A stretch of 64,000 nt of DNA, taken from IMG/VR virus record IMGVR_UViG_3300028832_000128, positions 1 through 64,000 of that record. One strand, 5' to 3'. Positions 8,349 through 56,391 of this stretch are shown here, one piece after another; position 1 is the stretch's first letter, and each line of letters opens with the position of its first letter. The notes under the pieces were generated by a model, which did not search any database, was not told where the DNA came from, and saw only the letters and a list, made by a program, of their open reading frames with translations. This stretch comes from a virus (taxonomy: Duplodnaviria; Caudoviricetes). Both the position numbers and the translations under genes were made by a program.

Positions 8349-8800
8349 TAAGCCCCTATTTTTGGTATACTTGTTGAAAAAGTTACTGCTTCAACTTCTT
8401 CAAGTGTTTTAGCTGCTTCTAAACTGTTTATTGCTACTCTCCAATTTTCTCTTGCCTGTGCAAGCGTTGCATACTGCTGTTGACTTATTACACCTTCTCC
8501 ATACTTAATTGCTTCATAATCTGTTTTGGCAAGCAGCTGTTGTAACATAACAATTTTTTCCGCTTTCTTTTGGTTTACTTCTGCGGCAATATATTTGTTC
8601 CAATACCAATCAAACTGAGATACAATTTGTTCTTTTGTAACCTCTTTAATAGCAAAACTTATAACATCGGCTTCATATATTTTTTGCCCGCTTTCATCTT
8701 TGGTTTCTTTTACGTTGTTATACATTGTTACATAATCCCAGCCACCTGTTTTAACAACGCTTACATTACCTTGTGGTAAATCTGTTATTTTTGTTTTCAT
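8348..8800 (-). CDS. Tail-fibre assembly chaperone-like protein, ATGA-coupled to RT
   Basis: C-terminal LAKTDY...RENWRVAIN motif resembles tail-fibre chaperones; homolog 45294..45770. Confidence 0.5.
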   Translation of the reverse strand: MKTKITDLPQGNVSVVKTGGWDYVTMYNNVKETKDESGQKIYEADVISFAIKEVTKEQIVSQFDWYWNKYIAAEVNQKKAEKIVMLQQLLAKTDYEAIKYGEGVISQQQYATLAQARENWRVAINSLEAAKTLEEVEAVTFSTSIPKIGA

Positions 8801-9822
8801 CTACACAACCCCCTTAATTGTTCTATGTTTATTAAATTGTAAATTTTGCAACCTAAATTAAAACTGTCAAACCATTTTAAATTACCAAGTCTACAACTAA
8901 GCCTTACAGCCCAATATTTACATGGTTTTTTAATATAGTTTTTCAAGGTTCTGTATAATCCGTATAAGTTTCTTTTTCTAAGTAATACATAACCATAGAA
9001 AAATCTATAACCAAGCATATCAATACCACGCACGGCAACCCGAAATATTTGCCAATTTCCTTTAAGCGTCAATCCAATTTTTGCAAGTATGGTAATAATT
9101 AAATCTACCAATCTGCGTAATTTTCTTTTATTTCCGCTTAAACTGATAAAATCGTCAACGTATCTTAAATAATAATTTATTCCATCGGCTTGTCTTATTG
9201 CAGTGTCCATATCAAGCAACAAAAGATTTTCAAACCATGCACTTGTATAATTTCCAAGCGGTAACCCGCCCATAGGTCCTAAACTGTAAGCTACTGTTGT
9301 AAGTAGTCTTAAATATTTTTTATCTTTTATAAATTGTTTAAAACTCTTAATAACATACTGCGGTCTTATATTTTCGTAACACTTTTTTATGTCGCATTTT
9401 AAGCACCATTTCGTTCCTTTTTTATCCGTATTAAGCCATTTTGTTATTGCCTTATAGCCGTAATGAATACCACGTCCGGGAATAGAAGCAATAGCGTAAG
9501 GATCCAACCTTTTCAATAATCTGTCATAAATCAAATCAATTAACAGATGATGAATACATTGGTCCGGATAAAATACAGGTTTATGCAACAATCTTTTCTT
9601 TTTTGACGGCTGATCTACTGTGTTACAAATAGTATAAGGAGACGGTTTATAACTTTCATTTAAAACCGTTTCTTTTAGTTTTTGAGCATACTTTTCTATA
9701 TTGCTAAGCACTTCTATTACCGGCTTTCTTTTTTTCTTGTGTTTAGCCGCTTTAAGAATGATTGCTTTACAATATTCGTTTGTAATTTTTTCTTCAGTAA
9801 TTAAAAATCCTATTCTTTTCAT
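8797..9822 (-). CDS. DGR reverse transcriptase (A)
   Basis: YVDD catalytic motif, LKCDIKKCY, GLPLGNYTSA, GIDMLGY; 341 aa; adjacent TR/VR pair. Confidence 0.95.
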   Translation of the reverse strand: MKRIGFLITEEKITNEYCKAIILKAAKHKKKRKPVIEVLSNIEKYAQKLKETVLNESYKPSPYTICNTVDQPSKKKRLLHKPVFYPDQCIHHLLIDLIYDRLLKRLDPYAIASIPGRGIHYGYKAITKWLNTDKKGTKWCLKCDIKKCYENIRPQYVIKSFKQFIKDKKYLRLLTTVAYSLGPMGGLPLGNYTSAWFENLLLLDMDTAIRQADGINYYLRYVDDFISLSGNKRKLRRLVDLIITILAKIGLTLKGNWQIFRVAVRGIDMLGYRFFYGYVLLRKRNLYGLYRTLKNYIKKPCKYWAVRLSCRLGNLKWFDSFNLGCKIYNLINIEQLRGLCR

Positions 9823-9970
9823 AGTGTTTTTTATCTTATTAGAGTGTTCGAATTATTTGCATTTTTAAAAACTACAAGCAACCTACTAACCCTATCCCTT
9901 GTTGCACTATTTTTGGCAAGTGCCACGGATTACATAAACAATCAAAACTGCTTTTTAAATTTAAGATATT

Positions 9971-10071
9971 AAACGCAACGCCCGCCATTATTCTGGTTAG
10001 TATTAGAAACGGTGTTGTTCAAATTCAAGTAGAACCCGCCCGCATTCGCCCCGTTGTTGCAGGTGCCGCCT
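9971..10071 (-). repeat. DGR template repeat TR-A
   Basis: 101-bp match to 10211..10311 with 13 mismatches, all at TR adenines; ten AAY codons in the VR frame. Confidence 0.97.
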
Positions 10072-10135
10072 ATTTTATGTAACCCTTCTTTTTTTACTTC
10101 TATTTAAAGAACAAACTGCTTTTATTTTTTTATCT

Positions 10136-10161
10136 TTAAGGGAAAAGGTTTTTTCCCTTAA
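10136..10161 (-). promoter_or_regulatory. Hairpin downstream of VR-A (candidate DGR target-recognition hairpin)
   Basis: ttaagggaaaa / ttttcccttaa 11-bp stem; same stem at 47135..47173. Confidence 0.65.
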
Positions 10162-10199
10162 CAACCCTTTTCTACGGTCTTTCCGCTACGCTTCAAGCC

Positions 10200-12230
10200 C
10201 TAAGGGATAAAAACGCAACGCCCGCCATAAGACTGGTTAGCAGTAGAAACGGTGCCGTTCAAAGCCAAGCAGAACCCGCCCGCATACGCCCCGAGGTTGC
10301 AGGTGCCGCCTGAAAACGCTCGATATACGGTATTGTTGGCGTGAGCATAATATTGATTATCGTTCGTTTTTCCGTTGCTGCTACCGTTCTTAAACAAGAA
10401 CATATCTTTACCTAAAAGTCTTGTAGCTTCGAATCTTCCGTTTGTTATCGTTCCGCCTGCATTTGTCGTTACCTCTATCCAATTGGCTTCTATAGACGAT
10501 TTTGTATAGCTTACGGTTCCGTCAGGATCAGGATTAAAATAAATATGTTCGGTTGTTCCGTCTCCTATTCCTGCTAAGCTGCCGACCATCTGTCCGGCAT
10601 TACCGATAAAATTATCAAGCCCAAAAGTTTTGTTAGGCATTTTACTTGCGTTATAATCACCGTTACCGGTATTTTCTCCGTCAAGTCCAAGCACGTTATC
10701 ACTACCGCCGGTAAGTTCCATACCTAAACACAATACAGTAGTATTTGCTGTTGTGCTTACGGTTCCCTCGATATAAACCTTTTTACAAGCTGTATCTGTT
10801 CCGCTTATACTTACAGTAACATCTTCAACCGATATAATCCTATACCAAGTTGTCGCACTTGCTGTTCCTACGCCTATGCACTGTTTATTTACAGGCACTG
10901 TATTTATTTGACTACTTGCGTTCCAATGTGTAGCCGTAAGTATTACATAATCGACGTTTGTTTCGTCCGTTACTGCTTTTGCGTCGCCTTTATATCCGGT
11001 AGTGTTGCCGTTACCTAAAGTAGCTTGCCAATCTAAATTGGCGTATTTAACAAGCCCTAAATACTGAATACTTGTTTGTTCTTTTATACCGAATAAACGT
11101 AATCCTTTTTTTCTCGGTAACGCTTCAAATTGTGCAATAGTTCTGCTGCATATAGGTGGTCTGCCTGTTGTGATTGTAAACGGAGTATTGTTTGTGGTCT
11201 GCATATCTTCACCGTTCCAATAATAATTGGTTCCGTTAAAGTTATACACACTATCAAAATCAGGTTCTACACCTTCATCCGTAGTATTATCACTTGTAGC
11301 CGTATAAATTAAACCGTTATAATACCACTTATCACCTTCGGTATAAGTTGCAGGTTGCTCTTCAAAAGCCACTAATTTAATTCTAAACGGCTCACCTATA
11401 GAATATTTTGATACTCCAATCCATTCATGTAACACGCCGTTTCTGTCGTGCATAGGTGATACTTTGTAACCGTCTTTAGCTTCTGCCGACAATATTACCA
11501 TTGTATTACCGTCATCATCGATTTCAAGCTTATACCAAAAGATATGAAACATTCTAAAACTGTAAAAACCGGGCAACCCGAAATGTGTCTCGTATTCATA
11601 GGTTCCTTCAACAGCAAACTGTTCGGCTTTACCTGTTTCGGCGTTATAGGTAACCAAAATATCATATCCTTCAAAAATTTCATGACCTTTAAAATCGTCG
11701 GTGCCTGCTGCAACATCTGTGCTTTTGGAAAAATTTAAGCTCGCCGCTCCCAAAATTCTTGTTCCTGCAGAGCTTGAAAGATTAAAACTTACTCCAAGTT
11801 CTTCATGACTTTTAACCGAATGGTTATACACGAACGCCGTTGTTGCTACTTTGTCGGATATATCGTCGTTATGTTGTGTAATTGCCTCTGTTATACCTTC
11901 AAATCGCTTATTGCCCGTTATTACCTCGGTTCCTGTTATATGCACAATATTATCTTCAGGTTTTGTTTGTAACGACGAACCATCCCAATAGTAATATACT
12001 CCGTCATACAAATAAGCTGTATTGTAGCTCGGATCTACTCCGCTGTCTTTTGTTGTTGTTGTAAGTGCGGTATAAATTTTTCCGTCATAAAACCATTTGC
12101 TACCTCTTACATAGGGCGTTGACGGCTGGCTTCCTATAGCAATTAAAGTTACAACTCCTGCACGTCCACCACCGCCGCTTGCTCCTACGGCTGCCCTTCC
12201 TGTATTAAATACTCCATCTGAATAACCCAT
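10200..12230 (-). CDS. DGR target protein A: putative receptor-binding/tail-fibre protein with C-terminal CLec-like VR
   Basis: VATTAFV tail-fibre motif; C-terminus GGTCNLGAYAGGFCLAL...SYGGRCV encoded by the VR. Confidence 0.9.
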   Translation of the reverse strand: MGYSDGVFNTGRAAVGASGGGGRAGVVTLIAIGSQPSTPYVRGSKWFYDGKIYTALTTTTKDSGVDPSYNTAYLYDGVYYYWDGSSLQTKPEDNIVHITGTEVITGNKRFEGITEAITQHNDDISDKVATTAFVYNHSVKSHEELGVSFNLSSSAGTRILGAASLNFSKSTDVAAGTDDFKGHEIFEGYDILVTYNAETGKAEQFAVEGTYEYETHFGLPGFYSFRMFHIFWYKLEIDDDGNTMVILSAEAKDGYKVSPMHDRNGVLHEWIGVSKYSIGEPFRIKLVAFEEQPATYTEGDKWYYNGLIYTATSDNTTDEGVEPDFDSVYNFNGTNYYWNGEDMQTTNNTPFTITTGRPPICSRTIAQFEALPRKKGLRLFGIKEQTSIQYLGLVKYANLDWQATLGNGNTTGYKGDAKAVTDETNVDYVILTATHWNASSQINTVPVNKQCIGVGTASATTWYRIISVEDVTVSISGTDTACKKVYIEGTVSTTANTTVLCLGMELTGGSDNVLGLDGENTGNGDYNASKMPNKTFGLDNFIGNAGQMVGSLAGIGDGTTEHIYFNPDPDGTVSYTKSSIEANWIEVTTNAGGTITNGRFEATRLLGKDMFLFKNGSSNGKTNDNQYYAHANNTVYRAFSGGTCNLGAYAGGFCLALNGTVSTANQSYGGRCVFIP
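10211..10311 (-). repeat. DGR variable repeat VR-A
   Basis: Adenine-specific divergence from TR-A; last ~34 codons of the target. Confidence 0.97.
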
Positions 12231-12276: not shown

Positions 12277-12435
12277 TCAAAATCGCCAAGTAAGTTTTAT
12301 GAATTTTCCGTCTATAAATTCATTGCTTATCGGCATATATAACCTGCTTGTAAATTCTATTTTCGGTATGTAAGGCGAATTTTTAACTTTATAATAAGCA
12401 ATTCCTACCTTACCTATTTTCCATAACTTTTTAAT
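12277..12435 (-). CDS. Unannotated 52-codon reading frame in frame behind the holin-like TGA
   Basis: Conserved with 49051..49209 with many synonymous changes; no ATG/GTG at 5' end. Confidence 0.65.
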   Translation of the reverse strand: MKKLWKIGKVGIAYYKVKNSPYIPKIEFTSRLYMPISNEFIDGKFIKLTWRF

Positions 12436-12816
12436 TCACTTGTTTTCATCTTTACCGATATACTCTTCAATCATTTCTTTTGCGTTTGCAAACTGAGCGT
12501 TATCGGCAATTTCTTTAATTAAAGTTTTTGCTTTTTCGAATGTAGAACTATCGGGCGTCTCTCCCTGTTCTTTCGTATAAGCTCTATTAAATTCAGCCAA
12601 AACATTAGCTGTAAATTTCAACCAATTTATTTGTGTTTCTTCAGGTTTAGGAATAACCTGTAACGCCAACTTTACGGCTTTAATTACATAGTTATCCACT
12701 ATTTCATCATCTTTTTTTGTTTCCGTCTGTCTTATGATCCAAAGCACAACTCTAAACAAAATGTAAACTAAAATTATCCATCCACCGTTTACAAATAAAC
12801 TTTTTAAAAATTCCAT
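12436..12816 (-). CDS. Holin-like membrane protein
   Basis: Single N-terminal hydrophobic segment then charged helical region; homolog 49210..49584. Confidence 0.5.
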   Translation of the reverse strand: MEFLKSLFVNGGWIILVYILFRVVLWIIRQTETKKDDEIVDNYVIKAVKLALQVIPKPEETQINWLKFTANVLAEFNRAYTKEQGETPDSSTFEKAKTLIKEIADNAQFANAKEMIEEYIGKDENK

Positions 12817-18740: not shown

Positions 18741-19248
18741 CCGCCCGGCTTGAAAAAAAATTTTCAAAATCTACAACTAATAAAAAGCTTTTAATTTCTT
18801 AAAAAACTTTGCTTATCATTTTTGATAATTCTTCGCCATCTGTTTGATTCGAACAAACATCGCCATCTGTCTAAATCTATTATTTAATAGACTTAAAGTC
18901 GTTGGAATTTTAACCATTTAAACTAAGACAGCAGTAAATTTATATCATCAATGATAAATCTTTTAAATTTTCCGTGTTTCCGTCAGCCAAATTCAATTTT
19001 AAACAATAATTCTGTCTGTCTAAAATCGTTTTGTAAAAAACTCTCTGTATGGCTGACATTTTTAAAAGGAGAGCGGCTGTCAGGACCTACCCCCAACCGT
19101 GTCCGGACATCGAATCTTATATTATGTTAAGTTCGACCGCCTTTTTCCTTATTTTCTCGTCGATAAATTTGCTTTGTTTTACTTGTTTGTTTGTCTGCTT
19201 TGGCTTGCCCGGTTGCTTGTTTGTTTGGTTATCTGATCCAAACGCCTA

Positions 19249-45294: not shown

Positions 45295-45770
45295 TATGCT
45301 CCTATTTTCGGAATACTTGTTGAAAATTCTACGGCTTCAATTTGTTCAATTGTTGTGCATTGTTCCAAAGCATTTATTGCGGTTCTCCATGCGGCTCTTG
45401 CCTGTGCAAGTGCTGCATACTGCTCTTGGCTTATTACGCCCTCGCCATACTTAATTGCTTCATAATCGGTCGCCTCAAGCAACTTTTTTAATCTGTTTAT
45501 TTTTAATTCTTTGTTTGCAATTACATCGGCTTCAATTGCCTTGTTCCAATAATAATCAAAATGAGCAACAATACTCTCTTTTGTTATATTTGCAACTTTC
45601 GGATATATCAATCTTACTGCGTCAACTTCATATACGGTTTTATTTTGTCCGTTTTCGGTTTCAACGGTTTTTTCAACCGCATTTTTAAACAACAAAACTT
45701 CCGTAAATCTATCTGTTTGTCTAACATCAACATTATCTTGTGGCACTACATCAACCGTTATTTTGCTCAT
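45294..45770 (-). CDS. Tail-fibre assembly chaperone-like protein
   Basis: LEATDY...RAAWRTAIN; ATGA-coupled to RT. Confidence 0.5.
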   Translation of the reverse strand: MSKITVDVVPQDNVDVRQTDRFTEVLLFKNAVEKTVETENGQNKTVYEVDAVRLIYPKVANITKESIVAHFDYYWNKAIEADVIANKELKINRLKKLLEATDYEAIKYGEGVISQEQYAALAQARAAWRTAINALEQCTTIEQIEAVEFSTSIPKIGA

Positions 45771-46783
45771 TTACACAACCCCCTTAATTGACTATAATTT
45801 ATTTTTGAATTTATGTAATTTTCCAACTTAAAACTGCTAAACCATTTTAATCCGCCAAGTCTGCAACTTAATCTTGTAGCCCAATATTTACACGGTTTTT
45901 TAACATAATGTTTTAATGTTCTGTATAATCCGTATAAATTTCTTTTTCTAAGTAAAACATAATTATAAAAGAACCTGTAACCGAGCATATCAATCCCTCT
46001 TACTTTGGTTCTGAAAATTTGCCAATTTTGTTTAAGTTTTAATTCTGCTTTTTGTAATATTTCCACTATGGTAGGTAATAATCTGCGTAATTTTCTTTTA
46101 TTGCTTGAAAGCACAATAAAATCGTCAACGTATCTCAAATAATAATTAATTCCGTCCGATTGTCTTATTGTTGTATCTAATTTTAATAACAAAAGATTCT
46201 CAAACCATGCACTTGTGTAATTTCCAAGCGGTAAACTTTTCATACTAAATGCTACTGTTTGTAACAGTTTTAAATATTTTTTATCTTTTATAAAACGTTT
46301 AAAGCACTCTACAACATACTGCGGTTTTATATTGTCGTAACATTTTTTAATATCACATTTAAGGCACCACTTCGTTCCTTTTTTGTCGGTATTAAGCCAT
46401 CTTGTAATTGCTTTGTAACCGTAATGAATACCACGCCCCGGAATTGAAGCAATAGCGTATGGATCCAATCTTTTCAACAATCTGTCATACACCAAATCAA
46501 TTAACAGATGGTGTATACACTGGTCCGGATAAAATACAGGTTTGTGTAATACTCTACGCTTGCCTGACGGTTGGTCGACTATATTACATACGGTATAAGG
46601 CGACGGTTTATATGTTTGTGTTAAAACCATCTCTTTTAATTCTTCCGCATAAAAATCAATATTGTTTAAAACTTTTTTAACACTGTTTCTTTTAGTTTTA
46701 AACTTTGCGGCTTTTAAAATTATCCGTTTACAATACTCTGTTGTAATTTTCTCGTTGGTAATCAAATTTCCAACTCTTTTCAT
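45767..46783 (-). CDS. DGR reverse transcriptase (B)
   Basis: YVDD, LPLGNYTSA, GIDMLGY; 338 aa. Confidence 0.95.
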   Translation of the reverse strand: MKRVGNLITNEKITTEYCKRIILKAAKFKTKRNSVKKVLNNIDFYAEELKEMVLTQTYKPSPYTVCNIVDQPSGKRRVLHKPVFYPDQCIHHLLIDLVYDRLLKRLDPYAIASIPGRGIHYGYKAITRWLNTDKKGTKWCLKCDIKKCYDNIKPQYVVECFKRFIKDKKYLKLLQTVAFSMKSLPLGNYTSAWFENLLLLKLDTTIRQSDGINYYLRYVDDFIVLSSNKRKLRRLLPTIVEILQKAELKLKQNWQIFRTKVRGIDMLGYRFFYNYVLLRKRNLYGLYRTLKHYVKKPCKYWATRLSCRLGGLKWFSSFKLENYINSKINYSQLRGLCK

Positions 46784-46963
46784 TTCGTTTTATTTCCTGT
46801 TTTTTTATCTTTTTTTACACTTCTTATAGTGTTTATATCTTTCAGAGTTTTCTATTCGTTAAAAACGAAATACTAACCCTGCCTTTTGTTGTCTTATTTT
46901 CACCAAGTGGTGCGGATTATACAAACAATAGAAAATATTTTTACTCCAAGTTTTTAAGATATT

Positions 46964-47064
46964 AACTCAGCGGGCACCGTTATTCCGCCTCGCATTGTCA
47001 AGCCCGTTGTTCAAATTCCAGTAGAAAGCCCCGTAATTCGCCCCGTTGTTGCAATTGCCGCCAT
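46964..47064 (-). repeat. DGR template repeat TR-B
   Basis: 101-bp match to 47202..47302; 15 mismatches at TR adenines, 1 at a C. Confidence 0.97.
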
Positions 47065-47134
47065 TTTGTATAACCCGTAGGGATTAATCCCTGTTTTACC
47101 TCTATTTAAAGAACAAGTTTTTATTTCTTTAGCT

Positions 47135-47173
47135 TTAAGGGAAAAGGCGGCACTGCGTGCCTTTTTCCCTTAA
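47135..47173 (-). promoter_or_regulatory. Hairpin downstream of VR-B
   Basis: Same 11-bp outer stem as in A plus inner ggcac-gca-gtgcc hairpin. Confidence 0.65.
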
Positions 47174-47192
47174 CAACCCTTTTCTAAAAGGC

Positions 47193-49034
47193 TCACTGTA
47201 AAACACAGCGGGCACCGTAATACCGCCTCGCATAGTCAAGCCCGTCGACCAAATGCCAAGAGAAAGCCCCGCAAAGCGCCCCGTAGCTGCAATAGCCGCC
47301 ATACCAAGCCGACTTTTGTCCTGCTGACGCTGTTAAATAACTGTAGTCGTCGGTTAAATATTTTACGTTTTGCACTCTTGTAACACCGGTATTCGATGGC
47401 AAGAAAGCAAATAAAGCAAGGCTGCTTAAAGCTACAAACTTTTTATCCCATCCCTCGCTTGTTCCTATATTTCCTACAGCTGTCCAATTTTTATTGTTTG
47501 CCGTATTTGTGTAAGCGTAATCGCTGTTATTTGGTTTTGGATTAACATATACCGTAGCCACTCCGTCAGCAACAATGTTTTCCATACCGCCCACGGCTTT
47601 GTTTTCGTTAGCATACCACTCACATATACCCATAACTTTCATAGGTCTTCTTGTTGTTGTGGTTATTGCTCCGTTTGCCGTATAATATCCGTCGTCGCCG
47701 AGTATTGCGTCTGCTCCGCCGGAAGCCCTTAATCCTAAATATATTGTTTGGTTTACCGTAGTAGTAATTTCGGTATCGATATTTATTTTTTTACAAGCTG
47801 TTTCAACGCCGTCTATTGTTTCGGTAACATCTTCTACACTCGAAATTTTATATCCTGTTGACGACGTATTCACATAAACAATATTATTTGTAATATCTTG
47901 TTCCAAACTTGCAACCCAATTTGTAGCCAAAATTATTATGCTGTTTTCATTACTCTGAGCAACGGCAACTTTTGTTTCTTTCCATCCCTCGCTTATACCT
48001 TGTCCTACGGAATATTGCCAATTCAAACTTGCATATTTAACTATACCAAGTAATTGTATGGCGGTTATTTCGTTTAGGTTCATAAGTCTTTGCGTTTTTG
48101 CTCTGAGCAACGCCTCAAACTGTTGGTTTGTTTTATAAGTTAAAGGAATACAATCTTTTCTTACGCAACAACCATTGTCGTCTGCTCCCTCGGGATAACA
48201 TACCTCATACTTGCCGTAATAGATATATTCTTTTAAATTTCCGTCGTCGTCTTTAAACCCCGGAGCTACTTCATAACCTTGCTCAGGCGAATCACTAAGC
48301 CATATTTCAATACCGTCGTCGGTAATTTGGCTTTTGTGCCAAAATATTCTTTTAGCAACAAATCTATCCCATCCCTCGCTATTTTTGTATTGTTCAAACT
48401 CATAGGTTCCCTCTACATACATTGTTCTTACTTGTGTCTGAGGATTATAATTAACAATACAATCAAATTTGCTGTAAATAGGATGATCTTTAAAATCGTC
48501 TGTTCCTGCTTCTGTATCGGATGAAGGGCTAAAATCCATACTTGTAGCACCGCCAAGTCTTGTGATAGTTCCATCGTATTTAATCAATACACCCAACTTT
48601 GTAGCACTTTTATATACTTGTTCTATATGATTAAACACAAAAGCCGTCGTTGCTACTTTTCTGCTAATATCGTCCATCGGCTGAGTTACCGCTTTTAATT
48701 CTCCTGAAAAATCTTTGTTACCTGTTATCTCTTCGGTGCCTGTAATATGCACAAGGTTTGTTTCAGGTTGTCCTTGTAATTCTTCGCCGTTCCAATAATA
48801 GTAAGTTCCGTTATACAAGTATGCTATTCTGCTGTCAGGATCAACTCCGCTGTCTTTTGTTGTTGTTGTAAGTGCAGTATATATTTTATCGTTATAAAAC
48901 CATTTGCTGCCTCTTACATACGGTGTTGACGGTTCTTCGCCCATTGCAATTAAAGCAACAACTCCTACGTTTCCGCCGTTATTGCCGCCTACTCTTGTTC
49001 TTCCTGTATTTCTTACTCCGTCTTCATAACCCAT
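47193..49034 (-). CDS. DGR target protein B (receptor-binding, CLec-like VR)
   Basis: N-terminus shared with target A; ends GGYCSYGALCGAFSW...RYYGARCVLQ; start at ATG after gaggtg. Confidence 0.9.
   Translation of the reverse strand: MGYEDGVRNTGRTRVGGNNGGNVGVVALIAMGEEPSTPYVRGSKWFYNDKIYTALTTTTKDSGVDPDSRIAYLYNGTYYYWNGEELQGQPETNLVHITGTEEITGNKDFSGELKAVTQPMDDISRKVATTAFVFNHIEQVYKSATKLGVLIKYDGTITRLGGATSMDFSPSSDTEAGTDDFKDHPIYSKFDCIVNYNPQTQVRTMYVEGTYEFEQYKNSEGWDRFVAKRIFWHKSQITDDGIEIWLSDSPEQGYEVAPGFKDDDGNLKEYIYYGKYEVCYPEGADDNGCCVRKDCIPLTYKTNQQFEALLRAKTQRLMNLNEITAIQLLGIVKYASLNWQYSVGQGISEGWKETKVAVAQSNENSIIILATNWVASLEQDITNNIVYVNTSSTGYKISSVEDVTETIDGVETACKKINIDTEITTTVNQTIYLGLRASGGADAILGDDGYYTANGAITTTTRRPMKVMGICEWYANENKAVGGMENIVADGVATVYVNPKPNNSDYAYTNTANNKNWTAVGNIGTSEGWDKKFVALSSLALFAFLPSNTGVTRVQNVKYLTDDYSYLTASAGQKSAWYGGYCSYGALCGAFSWHLVDGLDYARRYYGARCVLQ
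47202..47302 (-). repeat. DGR variable repeat VR-B
   Basis: Adenine-biased divergence from TR-B. Confidence 0.97.
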
Positions 49035-49050
49035 TGTAACCACCTCTTTT

Positions 49051-49209
49051 TTAAAATCGCCAAGTAAGTTTTATGAATTTCCCGTCTATAAACTCGTTAC
49101 TTATTGGCATATATAACCTGCTTGTAAATTCTATTTTTGGCATATACGGACTGTTTTTGATTTTGTAATAACAAATTCCTGCTTTACCTACTTTCCACAA
49201 CCTAAACAG
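49051..49209 (-). CDS. 52-codon frame behind holin-like TGA (B)
   Basis: Homolog of 12277..12435, same length. Confidence 0.65.
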   Translation of the reverse strand: MFRLWKVGKAGICYYKIKNSPYMPKIEFTSRLYMPISNEFIDGKFIKLTWRF

Positions 49210-49584
49210 TCATTTAAAATCTTCATTGTTTTTGTATTGATCTAACACATCTTTAATATTTTTAAGTTCAATATTATCTGCAATTTCTTCTATAAGTTTT
49301 TTAGCTTTTTCAATTGTTGTAATGTCCGGAGCGTCTCCTTGTTCTTTTGTGTATGCTTCGTTAAATTTTCCAAGTGCATTACCAACAAACTTAACCCAAT
49401 TTACATTTGAGTTTTGCGGTATGATTTTTAACGCAAAACTGACAGCCTGATTAACATATTTATCCAATATAACATCGTCTGTCTTTGTTTCTGTTTTTCT
49501 TACAATCCAAATTCCGATTCTAACCAAACAATAAAATAAAATTACCCATCCGCCATTTATAAAAATCTGTTTTAAAAATTCCAT
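49210..49584 (-). CDS. Holin-like membrane protein
   Basis: Homolog of 12436..12816. Confidence 0.5.
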   Translation of the reverse strand: MEFLKQIFINGGWVILFYCLVRIGIWIVRKTETKTDDVILDKYVNQAVSFALKIIPQNSNVNWVKFVGNALGKFNEAYTKEQGDAPDITTIEKAKKLIEEIADNIELKNIKDVLDQYKNNEDFK

Positions 49585-55381: not shown

Positions 55382-55425
55382 TTTGTTTCTGTCTCCTTTT
55401 TTTAAAAAACTTTTTCTATGTTTTT

Positions 55426-55501
55426 CGCTTTCTGTAGGATTCGAACCTACACTCCCAAATACACCGGTTCTTTGGTGTTCTTCCGTCTAAACTAAGAAAG
55501 C
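55426..55501 (-). tRNA. tRNA-like element with non-canonical anticodon arm (B only)
   Basis: GCTTTCT/AGAAAGC acceptor, GTAGG-TTCGAAT-CCTAC T arm, D arm with GG; CCAAA/TTTGG stem encloses 11 nt. Confidence 0.55.
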
Positions 55502-55502
55502 A

Positions 55503-55760: not shown

Positions 55761-56391
55761 CTGCTTATCCTTTTAAGTTGCTTTTTAAGCCGAGAAAAAA
55801 AGAAAAAATATATTTTATCGTCGTAAATTTAAGTTGCTGGCAAGTTGCTTTTTTGCAAATTATCAATATTGATAATCCGCCCGGCTTTAAAAAAAATTTT
55901 TTCAAAATCTACCACTTAATAAAAGGCTTTTAATTTCTTAAAAACTCGAAATTATCAAAACTGATAAAATTAAAAACGCCGTTGGTTTGATTCGAACAAA
56001 CATCGTCAATTGTCTAAATCTATCGGTGGACAGATTTAAAGTCATTGAAATTTTAACCGCTTAAACTACAACAGCATTAATTTATACCAACAAAGATAAA
56101 TCTCTTAAAATTTCAGCCTTTCCGTTAGCCCAAAACAAAATTAAATTGTTTTTATTACCTTATTATCTCGCTTTTTATAAAAAACTCTCTGTAAGGCTGA
56201 CATTTTATAAGCCGGAGCCGCTGTCGGGACCTACCGGCAACCGTGTCCGGTGCCGAACTTGATATTATGTTAAGTTCAGGCGTCAAATTCTTTGTTTTAT
56301 CGTCGGAAACTTTGCTTTATTTTTGCTTGTTTGTGTGTCTGATATGGCTTGTGCGATTGTTTGTTTTGTCTGATCCTGATACAGACATCTA

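Follow-up and report, generated by a model that had tools for sequence, protein, structure and literature searches.

In the RNA phage Qbeta, the coat gene ends in a leaky UGA at which a minority of ribosomes insert tryptophan, giving rise to the A1 protein with its C-terminal extension. Programmed readthrough of this type is well documented in RNA phages and in eukaryotic viruses; in tailed DNA phages, where frameshifting dominates, it is to our knowledge hardly known. In phage lambda, S105 and S107 form a dual-start holin/antiholin pair in which the charge of the cytoplasmic C-terminus tunes the timing of lysis, and we know of no holin for which a recoding-based, two-isoform regulation of lysis has been described. 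In phage phiKT, the cationic peptide gp28 replaces the spanins (bioRxiv 10.1101/515445). Finally, runs of nine A residues (A9), such as those used by Thermus dnaX and IS elements, are documented slippage sites; AT-rich organisms may suppress such slippage (PMC1088944).

Here, the first 64,000 nucleotides (hereafter the window) of a 75.6-kb IMG/VR virus record were analysed, with attention to a gene encoding a holin-like membrane protein that ends in TGA and is followed, in the same frame, by 52 further codons, an arrangement that occurs twice. As in Qbeta A1, a leaky UGA would end the main product and a conserved C-terminal extension would be appended, with both forms being kept. Unlike Qbeta, the carrier is a dsDNA podovirus-like phage of Elusimicrobia, the gene concerned encodes a membrane (holin-like) rather than a capsid protein, the readthrough is a prediction from sequence, and the extension is also found as a free-standing gene in relatives. 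The locus also resembles known stop-coupled genes, in which the downstream frame lies at or overlaps the upstream stop, lacks a Shine-Dalgarno (SD) sequence, needs upstream translation and stands in a lysis context. Such genes begin with AUG, GUG or UUG, whereas 11 of the 26 in-frame junctions considered below offer AUA, AUU or CUG only, and the constraint on UGA observed here is not required by coupling.

The proposed outcome is reminiscent of lambda S105/S107 in that two isoforms, one major and one minor, would come from a single membrane lysis gene and would differ by a charged cytoplasmic end; unlike in lambda, the difference would be C-terminal and would arise through recoding rather than from two starts, and the upstream protein is a putative holin with no holin-family match. 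With phiKT gp28, the small protein encoded by the 52 codons shares small size, cationic character, the lack of a signal peptide, a position between holin-like and endolysin genes, and occurrence in a podophage of a diderm host. It differs from gp28, which is all-helical and amphipathic, in showing no sequence similarity to that peptide and in its predicted helix and beta-hairpin, and some of the cassettes described here also carry a membrane/coiled-coil gene of weak Rz-like similarity. In two relatives, an A9 run precedes the stop such that one extra A would join the two frames, as in slippage in Thermus dnaX and IS elements (PMC1088944); unlike in those systems, this arrangement is confined to a sister lineage and is not that of the window, and slippage is a candidate mechanism put forward from the sequence.

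Results

The record contains two related phage units of approximately 37 kb each, termed A and B, whose structural genes (portal, adaptor and large terminase) are SU10-like. The portal and adaptor matched the SU10-type families PF23899 and PF24175 (4099-8348 and 41045-45294; these and all other window coordinates given here refer to the minus strand), pointing to an Elusimicrobia phage with a podophage morphogenesis module of Kuravirus-like type.

In unit A, the gene encoding the holin-like protein, a one-pass membrane protein of 126 residues belonging to what is here called family I (12436..12816), is preceded by the SD sequence GGAGA, starts with ATG and ends in TGA (12436..12438) in the context AAG TGA A. 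Directly behind this junction stop lies the small frame (12277..12435), comprising 52 codons (12280-12435) and a TGA of its own (12277-12279) and encoding a cationic product of net charge +8. The first codon after the junction stop (c1; 12433..12435) is ATT, a candidate near-cognate restart codon. Unit B shows the same layout (49051..49584), with a membrane-protein gene encoding 124 residues (49210..49584) that ends in TGA in the context AAA TGA C, followed by a small frame of 52 in-frame codons and a TAA (49051..49209, with the stop at 49051-49053). The initial annotation had reported the continuation of both copies for 52 codons, the peptides so encoded, the first codons ATT (A) and CTG (B), and the lack of ATG or GTG near the 5' end, all of which were confirmed here. 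It had, however, missed that the fourth codon of copy B is a TTG (49198..49200), a possible canonical restart site 9 nt past the stop. This codon is TTG in copy B, TTA in copy A and CTG in the relative L006, and as such varies as an ordinary Leu codon.

In copy A, the ATG of a tail-protein gene lies 47 nt beyond the stop of the small frame, and this tail protein is targeted by a diversity-generating retroelement. In each unit, the retroelement adjoins the pair on its downstream side and comprises the target tail-protein gene, a spacer and a reverse transcriptase gene (8797-12230 and 45767-49043). The reverse transcriptase matched RVT_1 (2e-14) and phrog_1423 (2e-65), and the spacer of unit B matched Rfam RT-17/RT-18 RNA at the gathering score (46829-46917), with no such match in unit A.

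Codon comparison of the two small frames bore out the earlier claim that they differ mostly by synonymous changes, including a TCG/AGT switch at a Ser codon, and gave dN of 0.08 and dS of 0.75 (NG86, 43-codon core), corresponding to dN/dS of approximately 0.1. Across 21 lineages, dN ranged from 0.02 to 0.45 and dS from approximately 0.5 to saturation, dN/dS being low for every pair. The invariant ending, L-T-W-R-F, is spelled with CTT, TTG or TTA for Leu and with CGA, AGG or AGA for Arg. Because one reading frame is preserved in 34 distinct homologous sequences whose synonymous sites are saturated, its conservation goes far beyond chance. The stretch of 49-52 codons is thus a real, conserved coding sequence. 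Relaxed constraint, as dN/dS near 1 or frameshifts, was not seen in lineages that offer no start codon; purifying selection acts there as well.

These 34 sequences, each consisting of junction plus small frame, come from rumen and termite Elusimicrobia phages and prophages, most of them from rumen metagenomes, and were gathered by scanning viral, genome and metagenome collections at the DNA level and by looking up contigs; L060 was left out as a decayed copy. Since several of the sequences sit in Elusimicrobia or Endomicrobia metagenome-assembled genomes (MAGs), Elusimicrobia was taken to be the host phylum. The family is rare, with an exhaustive profile search of 1.8 billion representative proteins returning six matches and no true fusion. 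No Pfam or PHROG match was obtained for either the small protein or the upstream protein, tblastn against GenBank phages gave no match, and none of the database homologs naturally joins the two parts through a sense codon at the junction.

Database entries of 116-172 residues that appear to be fusions were rejected as gene-caller artefacts, since wherever the DNA could be read (P0015 not included) they translate only with TGA as Trp. Gene callers either cut the gene to pieces of 30 or 40 residues from internal ATGs or set short contigs to TGA=W. False or truncated calls were seen in public protein sets among the entries P0006, P0011-P0027 and P0033-P0038, one false fusion being spuriously named 'RatA toxin'.

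The small frame lies in phase directly behind the upstream gene in 26 of the 34 distinct sequences. The junction stop is TGA in all 26, with no change on an NJ tree of these sequences. By contrast, the small frame's own stop, only 150 nt away, underwent at least 10 changes on the same tree (TAA in 14, TGA in 10 and TAG in 2), and TGA ends 10 of the 55 genes in the window. From this difference we conclude that selection maintains TGA as the junction stop. The base following the junction TGA is A or C in every in-frame case. In the set of 26 in-frame junctions, c1 is ATA in 20, ATT in three and CTG in three, CTG accounting for 1.9% of Leu codons in the phage; in L063, which belongs to the 26-sequence tree set, c1 is ATG.

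Nearly all other genes in the window carry GGAG or GAGG 5-9 nt before ATG; an SD sequence before the small frame is absent in every coupled copy. No ATG, GTG or TTG occurs in codons 1-4 in 11 of the 26 in-frame sequences, namely copy A and ten others representing about eight lineages (L006, L025-27, L031, L033, L037, L039, L041 and L058), and such a codon is present in the other 15. Copy A opens with ATT AAA AAG TTA and reaches no ATG, GTG or TTG until an internal Met codon. A canonical start stands near the stop in copy B (the TTG at +9), in the L003 group and in L063, while copy B and L004 (both with TTG), the L003 group and L036 have TTG, ATG or GTG at most 9 nt from the stop.

Codons 2-4 show the substitutions expected of translated sequence, c2 encoding Leu, Ile or Phe (by TTA, TTG, CTA, CTG, ATA or TTT), c3 Lys or Arg (by AAA, AAG, AGA or CGG), and c4 Met, Val, Leu or Ile (by ATG, GTT, CTT, ATT, GTA, GTG or ATA). 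Between copy A and L006, codons 1-11 differ by four synonymous and two conservative changes, with dS saturated. Canonical starts at c2 or c4 appear at about the frequency expected from codon usage. As the first four codons thus evolve as codons, and canonical starts arise there at roughly the codon-usage rate, translation enters at c1 or upstream of it.

Three other descriptions of the junction were considered and rejected. SD-led initiation fails, as there is no SD sequence and a start at one of the internal ATGs would not account for the conserved N-terminal half, while an NTG overlapping the junction stop would open a frame that meets a stop immediately. A 'start compensation' between TTA plus ATG and TTG plus GTT, seen in the first few loci, failed with more lineages.

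No consensus RNA fold was found at the junction. Within the small frame of copy A, a hairpin at 12367..12414 has a predicted stability of -11.7 kcal/mol (z -2.8), and 10 of 16 lineages have comparable, significant hairpins inside the small frame, in registers that differ. These hairpins were rejected as a classic readthrough stimulator, being too far from the stop (19-31 nt) and in differing registers. The stable ones pair W-G codons with S-P or S-S codons, with z down to -5 (12367-12414; L013:2434-2481; L030:2007-2054), and seem to be weak or missing in several of the lineages that have TTG or GTG at codon 4 (copy B, L004, L036 and L050).

Other arrangements of the two genes were found among the relatives. 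In L017, from an Endomicrobia MAG, TGA TAA is followed by ATG, with the small frame at +2, and in L059, TAA is followed by 2 nt and ATG ATG, with the small frame in another frame; fusion is impossible in both, and a normal ATG is present. In L005, the small gene has its own -35/-10 promoter, SD sequence and ATG. As these three outgroups carry stand-alone genes with ATG, the domain is able to function on its own as a free protein. It is in these outgroups only that the separate gene with a normal start, which the initial annotation had named as evidence against its reading, was encountered.

In L034 and L050, the small frame is at -1, and the upstream stop, TAA, shares one base with c1 (TAATT and TAATA, respectively), such that readthrough is unworkable. 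The two sequences are mutually diverged (dS saturated), and L034 was assembled from two samples; L034 has no canonical start, yet purifying selection still acts on its small frame. In L034 as in L050, an A9 run stands 4 nt ahead of the stop. No other A run of at least nine residues occurs in either locus; nine sister loci lack such runs altogether, and the 75.6-kb record has a single one. Addition of a single A to the mRNA would restore the fusion frame, as would a -1 slip on A_AAA_AAA, and the region (L034:1987-2003; L050:1981-1997) is accordingly best described as a candidate transcriptional-slippage or -1 frameshift site. A further -1 arrangement, a TAATA overlap in L008, has no slippery run; an internal ATG is present.

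In L009 (L009:695-772) and L015, an ORF encoding 16-20 hydrophobic residues (M-L-T-A-F-F-F… or M-F-G-F-F-L…) lies between the small frame and a DUF5675 gene. The tiny ORF of L009 is likewise in phase behind a TGA.

Whether TGA is a stop codon in these phages was considered in both phage and host. The window genes ending in TGA include the copy A small frame. Three host MAGs encode RF2 (scores above 510 bits; cut-off 370) and a tRNA-Trp(CCA) whose anticodon stem has the normal 5 bp, and no suppressor tRNA was found in the 75.6-kb phage record. Given these hosts, the lack of a phage suppressor and the use of TGA to end other genes, the code is standard. The idea, taken from PMC13092985, that the anticodon stem of the host tRNA-Trp might be shortened to 4 bp was rejected, the stems being of 5 bp. 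No SECIS-like element was evident at the junction, the hairpins standing in no fixed register.

Both units contain a tRNA-like element (18833-18933 and 55976-56076) that ARAGORN called in intron mode only, as a tRNA-Ser(aga) whose anticodon loop carries a 26-nt insert; it was rejected as a reader of UGA. A normal tRNA-Pro(cgg) is present in unit B alone (55425-55502).

Two types of upstream protein precede the small frame, namely family I, the type found in the window (124-179 residues), and family II (66-99 residues). Since a membrane helix, a subsequent T-x-T-x-K-D-D motif and an amphipathic helix are common to both, the two families are probably distant homologs. The longer members of each carry a signal-peptide-like N-terminal segment (…VFA|D or …IFA|E) before the helix; short members have a tail of approximately 12 residues only. 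The presence of this segment ahead of the membrane helix argues for an N-out/C-in topology, in which the C-terminal tail, and any extension fused to it, would be cytoplasmic.

In relatives, the genes downstream of the pair encode Peptidase_M15_3 (PHROG 'endolysin'), M15_4, NlpC/P60 or DUF5675 proteins, and the upstream neighbour is often a gene whose product combines a membrane segment with a coiled coil and resembles Rz weakly. Judging from this gene neighbourhood, the pair probably belongs to a lysis module. In the window's own record, no endolysin was found beside the pair, nor was a DUF5675 or M15_3 gene; because no such hydrolase was found there, 'holin-like' is to be read as a label and not as a result. 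The upstream protein showed a weak likeness (0.84) to an Atlas 'putative phage holin' and no holin match in Pfam or PHROG.

As for the small protein itself, AF2 modelling from a 14-sequence alignment (pLDDT 78) predicted that residues 3-14 form a helix and residues 21-30/35-45 a beta-hairpin, while a model of the readthrough fusion (pLDDT 52) was uninformative. The protein has a net charge of +5 to +8 and a pI of approximately 10. When the small-domain model was searched with Foldseek, neither PDB nor BFVD returned anything at E <= 0.001, and no signal sequence, lipobox or conserved Cys was found in the protein. Language-model look-alikes were short C-terminal fragments of outer-membrane barrel families (0.92-0.95), a weak resemblance with low shared-feature counts.

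The L-T-W-R-F ending fits, by eye, the outer-membrane beta-signal to which it had been compared at the outset; no export signal is present, and an outer-membrane anchor is in conflict with the cytoplasmic location that the fused form would have. The related proposal of a spanin (o-spanin or u-spanin) found no support, the small protein having neither a signal peptide nor a lipobox Cys and the fused form being expected in the cytoplasm. As originally worded, the spanin and beta-signal idea is thus unsupported, the C-terminus of the upstream protein being predicted to be cytoplasmic.

Discussion

Given that the small frame lies directly in frame behind an invariant TGA, often without a normal start, it is most likely produced by leaky reading of that TGA, with a stop-coupled start at AUA or AUU being less likely. 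That programmed UGA readthrough yields a long isoform is a reading to which we assign roughly even chances. Under such a scheme, the 52 codons would be a coding extension of the membrane-protein gene. For most ribosomes, UGA would end translation, giving the 126-residue membrane protein with its N-terminus outside and its helical C-terminal tail in the cytoplasm. A minority would decode UGA by a near-cognate tRNA, most likely tRNA-Trp, and so add a cationic helix/beta-hairpin domain of 52 residues. The resulting isoform of 179 residues, with about eight added positive charges on the cytoplasmic tail, would be a minor regulatory form of the holin-like protein. Here, the entry by readthrough, its rate and its role are what we infer.

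Readthrough is favoured because it accounts for a TGA that never varies and is always followed by A or C, for the strict phase and for the indifference to start codons, because the junction persists behind two very different upstream families, and because the A9 run is limited to the -1 lineage while an ATG appears only where fusion is impossible. Against it count the lack of a stimulatory RNA structure at the usual distance, the ordinary appearance of host tRNA-Trp and RF2, the restriction of c1 to ATA, ATT, CTG or ATG, all of which are start-capable, the TAATA overlap of L008 in the -1 frame without a slippery run, the lack of an endolysin adjoining the pair in the window, the failure to find a natural sense-codon fusion among database homologs, and the poor AF2 model of the fusion. 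Moreover, as the domain works free in L005, L017 and L059, a free product everywhere would be more parsimonious. Such a product is what one would obtain were the small frame a separate gene translated by termination-reinitiation without an SD sequence, on a codon abutting or overlapping the stop (AUU in copy A; AUA, CUG or AUG, or UAAUU and UAAUA overlaps, elsewhere). Some lineages would restart at a nearby UUG, AUG or GUG, and all would make a free cationic protein of 49-52 residues (6 kDa). We regard this as the main rival, less likely than readthrough. Beyond the start-capable c1 codons, it draws on the TGA ATG of L063 and on the use of CTG, a very rare Leu codon. In L034, L050 and L008, it would recognize the classic one-base stop/start overlap with ATT or ATA replacing ATG, and with outgroups producing a free protein from ATG it would give one product type for all lineages. 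The TTG, ATG or GTG within 9 nt of the stop in copy B, L004, the L003 group and L036 fits as well, as does a site between the holin-like gene and an endolysin gene for a protein of charge +5 to +8 with no signal peptide, matching the described spanin substitute. Possibly, the free protein would stay in the cytoplasm until the membrane is holed and would then act on the outer membrane like phiKT gp28. Termination-reinitiation nonetheless leaves TGA at 26 of 26 junctions unexplained while the other stop drifts freely, gives no reason for an A9 run in the -1 lineage alone, and would lead one to expect ATG at c1 in more than a single lineage, ATA to ATG being a single transition. In addition, a coupling reporter in E. 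coli showed no restart at AUA (PMC9955659). Non-canonical restarts are also disfavoured by IF3 (PMC2268962).

Further explanations share parts of this evidence. Were unrecycled ribosomes to decode on after release at UGA, without initiation, a free peptide starting with Ile or Leu would result, accounting for the strict in-frame abutment and for the translation of c1-c3 without a start codon; downstream reading in phase with the stop has indeed been documented upon failed recycling (PMC9955659). Such resumption is known under RRF deficiency only, there is no evidence that these phages disturb recycling, and the TGA specificity and the -1 lineages would remain unexplained, so that we consider it very improbable. 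Hardly more can be said for a loss of the start in copy A (TTG to TTA), leaving that copy silent or decaying and copy B alone expressed as an ordinary coupled gene. The TTG found in copy B and L004 where copy A has TTA is in keeping with this, yet copy A and L006 keep the whole frame, codons 1-11 included, under purifying selection at saturated dS, and nine more start-less sequences (about seven lineages) keep the frame. Least credible of all is that TGA is a sense codon (whether through genetic code 4 or 25, through selenocysteine or through a suppressor tRNA of the phage) and the two parts one ordinary gene. Public gene callers do read several short contigs with TGA as Trp, giving the 116-172-residue 'fusions', but this is contradicted by the TGA-ended genes of the window, host RF2, the canonical tRNA-Trp(CCA) and the lack of a suppressor tRNA or SECIS-like element.

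Leaky reading of TGA, while preferred, need not act alone. In lineages with ATG, GTG or TTG 3-9 nt from the stop, as with the TTG of copy B, a free small protein is probably made too, and readthrough and restart may both operate in lineages like copy B. The two mechanisms put forward in the initial annotation, readthrough and a stop-coupled non-canonical start, are accordingly both still live, and its interpretation is supported in part. Either route of entry would be unusual, and the comparative data lend support to that view for each. More tentatively, the phages of this Elusimicrobia lineage could have kept two recoding devices, a leaky UGA in most, the window included, and A9 slippage in the sister lineage, that append a cationic domain to the tail of the holin-like protein and so form a two-isoform lysis regulator. 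In functional terms, the small domain would serve either in a long isoform whose cationic cytoplasmic tail modulates the holin-like protein or as a free cationic peptide acting after membrane permeabilisation.

With TGA retained through saturating divergence while a control stop only 150 nt off is free to drift, the locus offers an exceptionally clean recoding signature in comparative terms. Whichever mechanism holds, standard gene callers miss or truncate the gene. The small protein represents a new family, tied to lysis modules in phages of a poorly studied diderm phylum, and the case may reveal a new route by which the ratio of two lysis-protein isoforms is set or by which a toxic small lysis protein is dosed.

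In some relatives with a family II upstream protein, the gene after the small frame encodes an Acb2/Tad1-hairpin domain, according to precomputed Pfam assignments (L064:1953-2336; L067:989-1372). The domain is that of the anti-CBASS/Thoeris sponge family.
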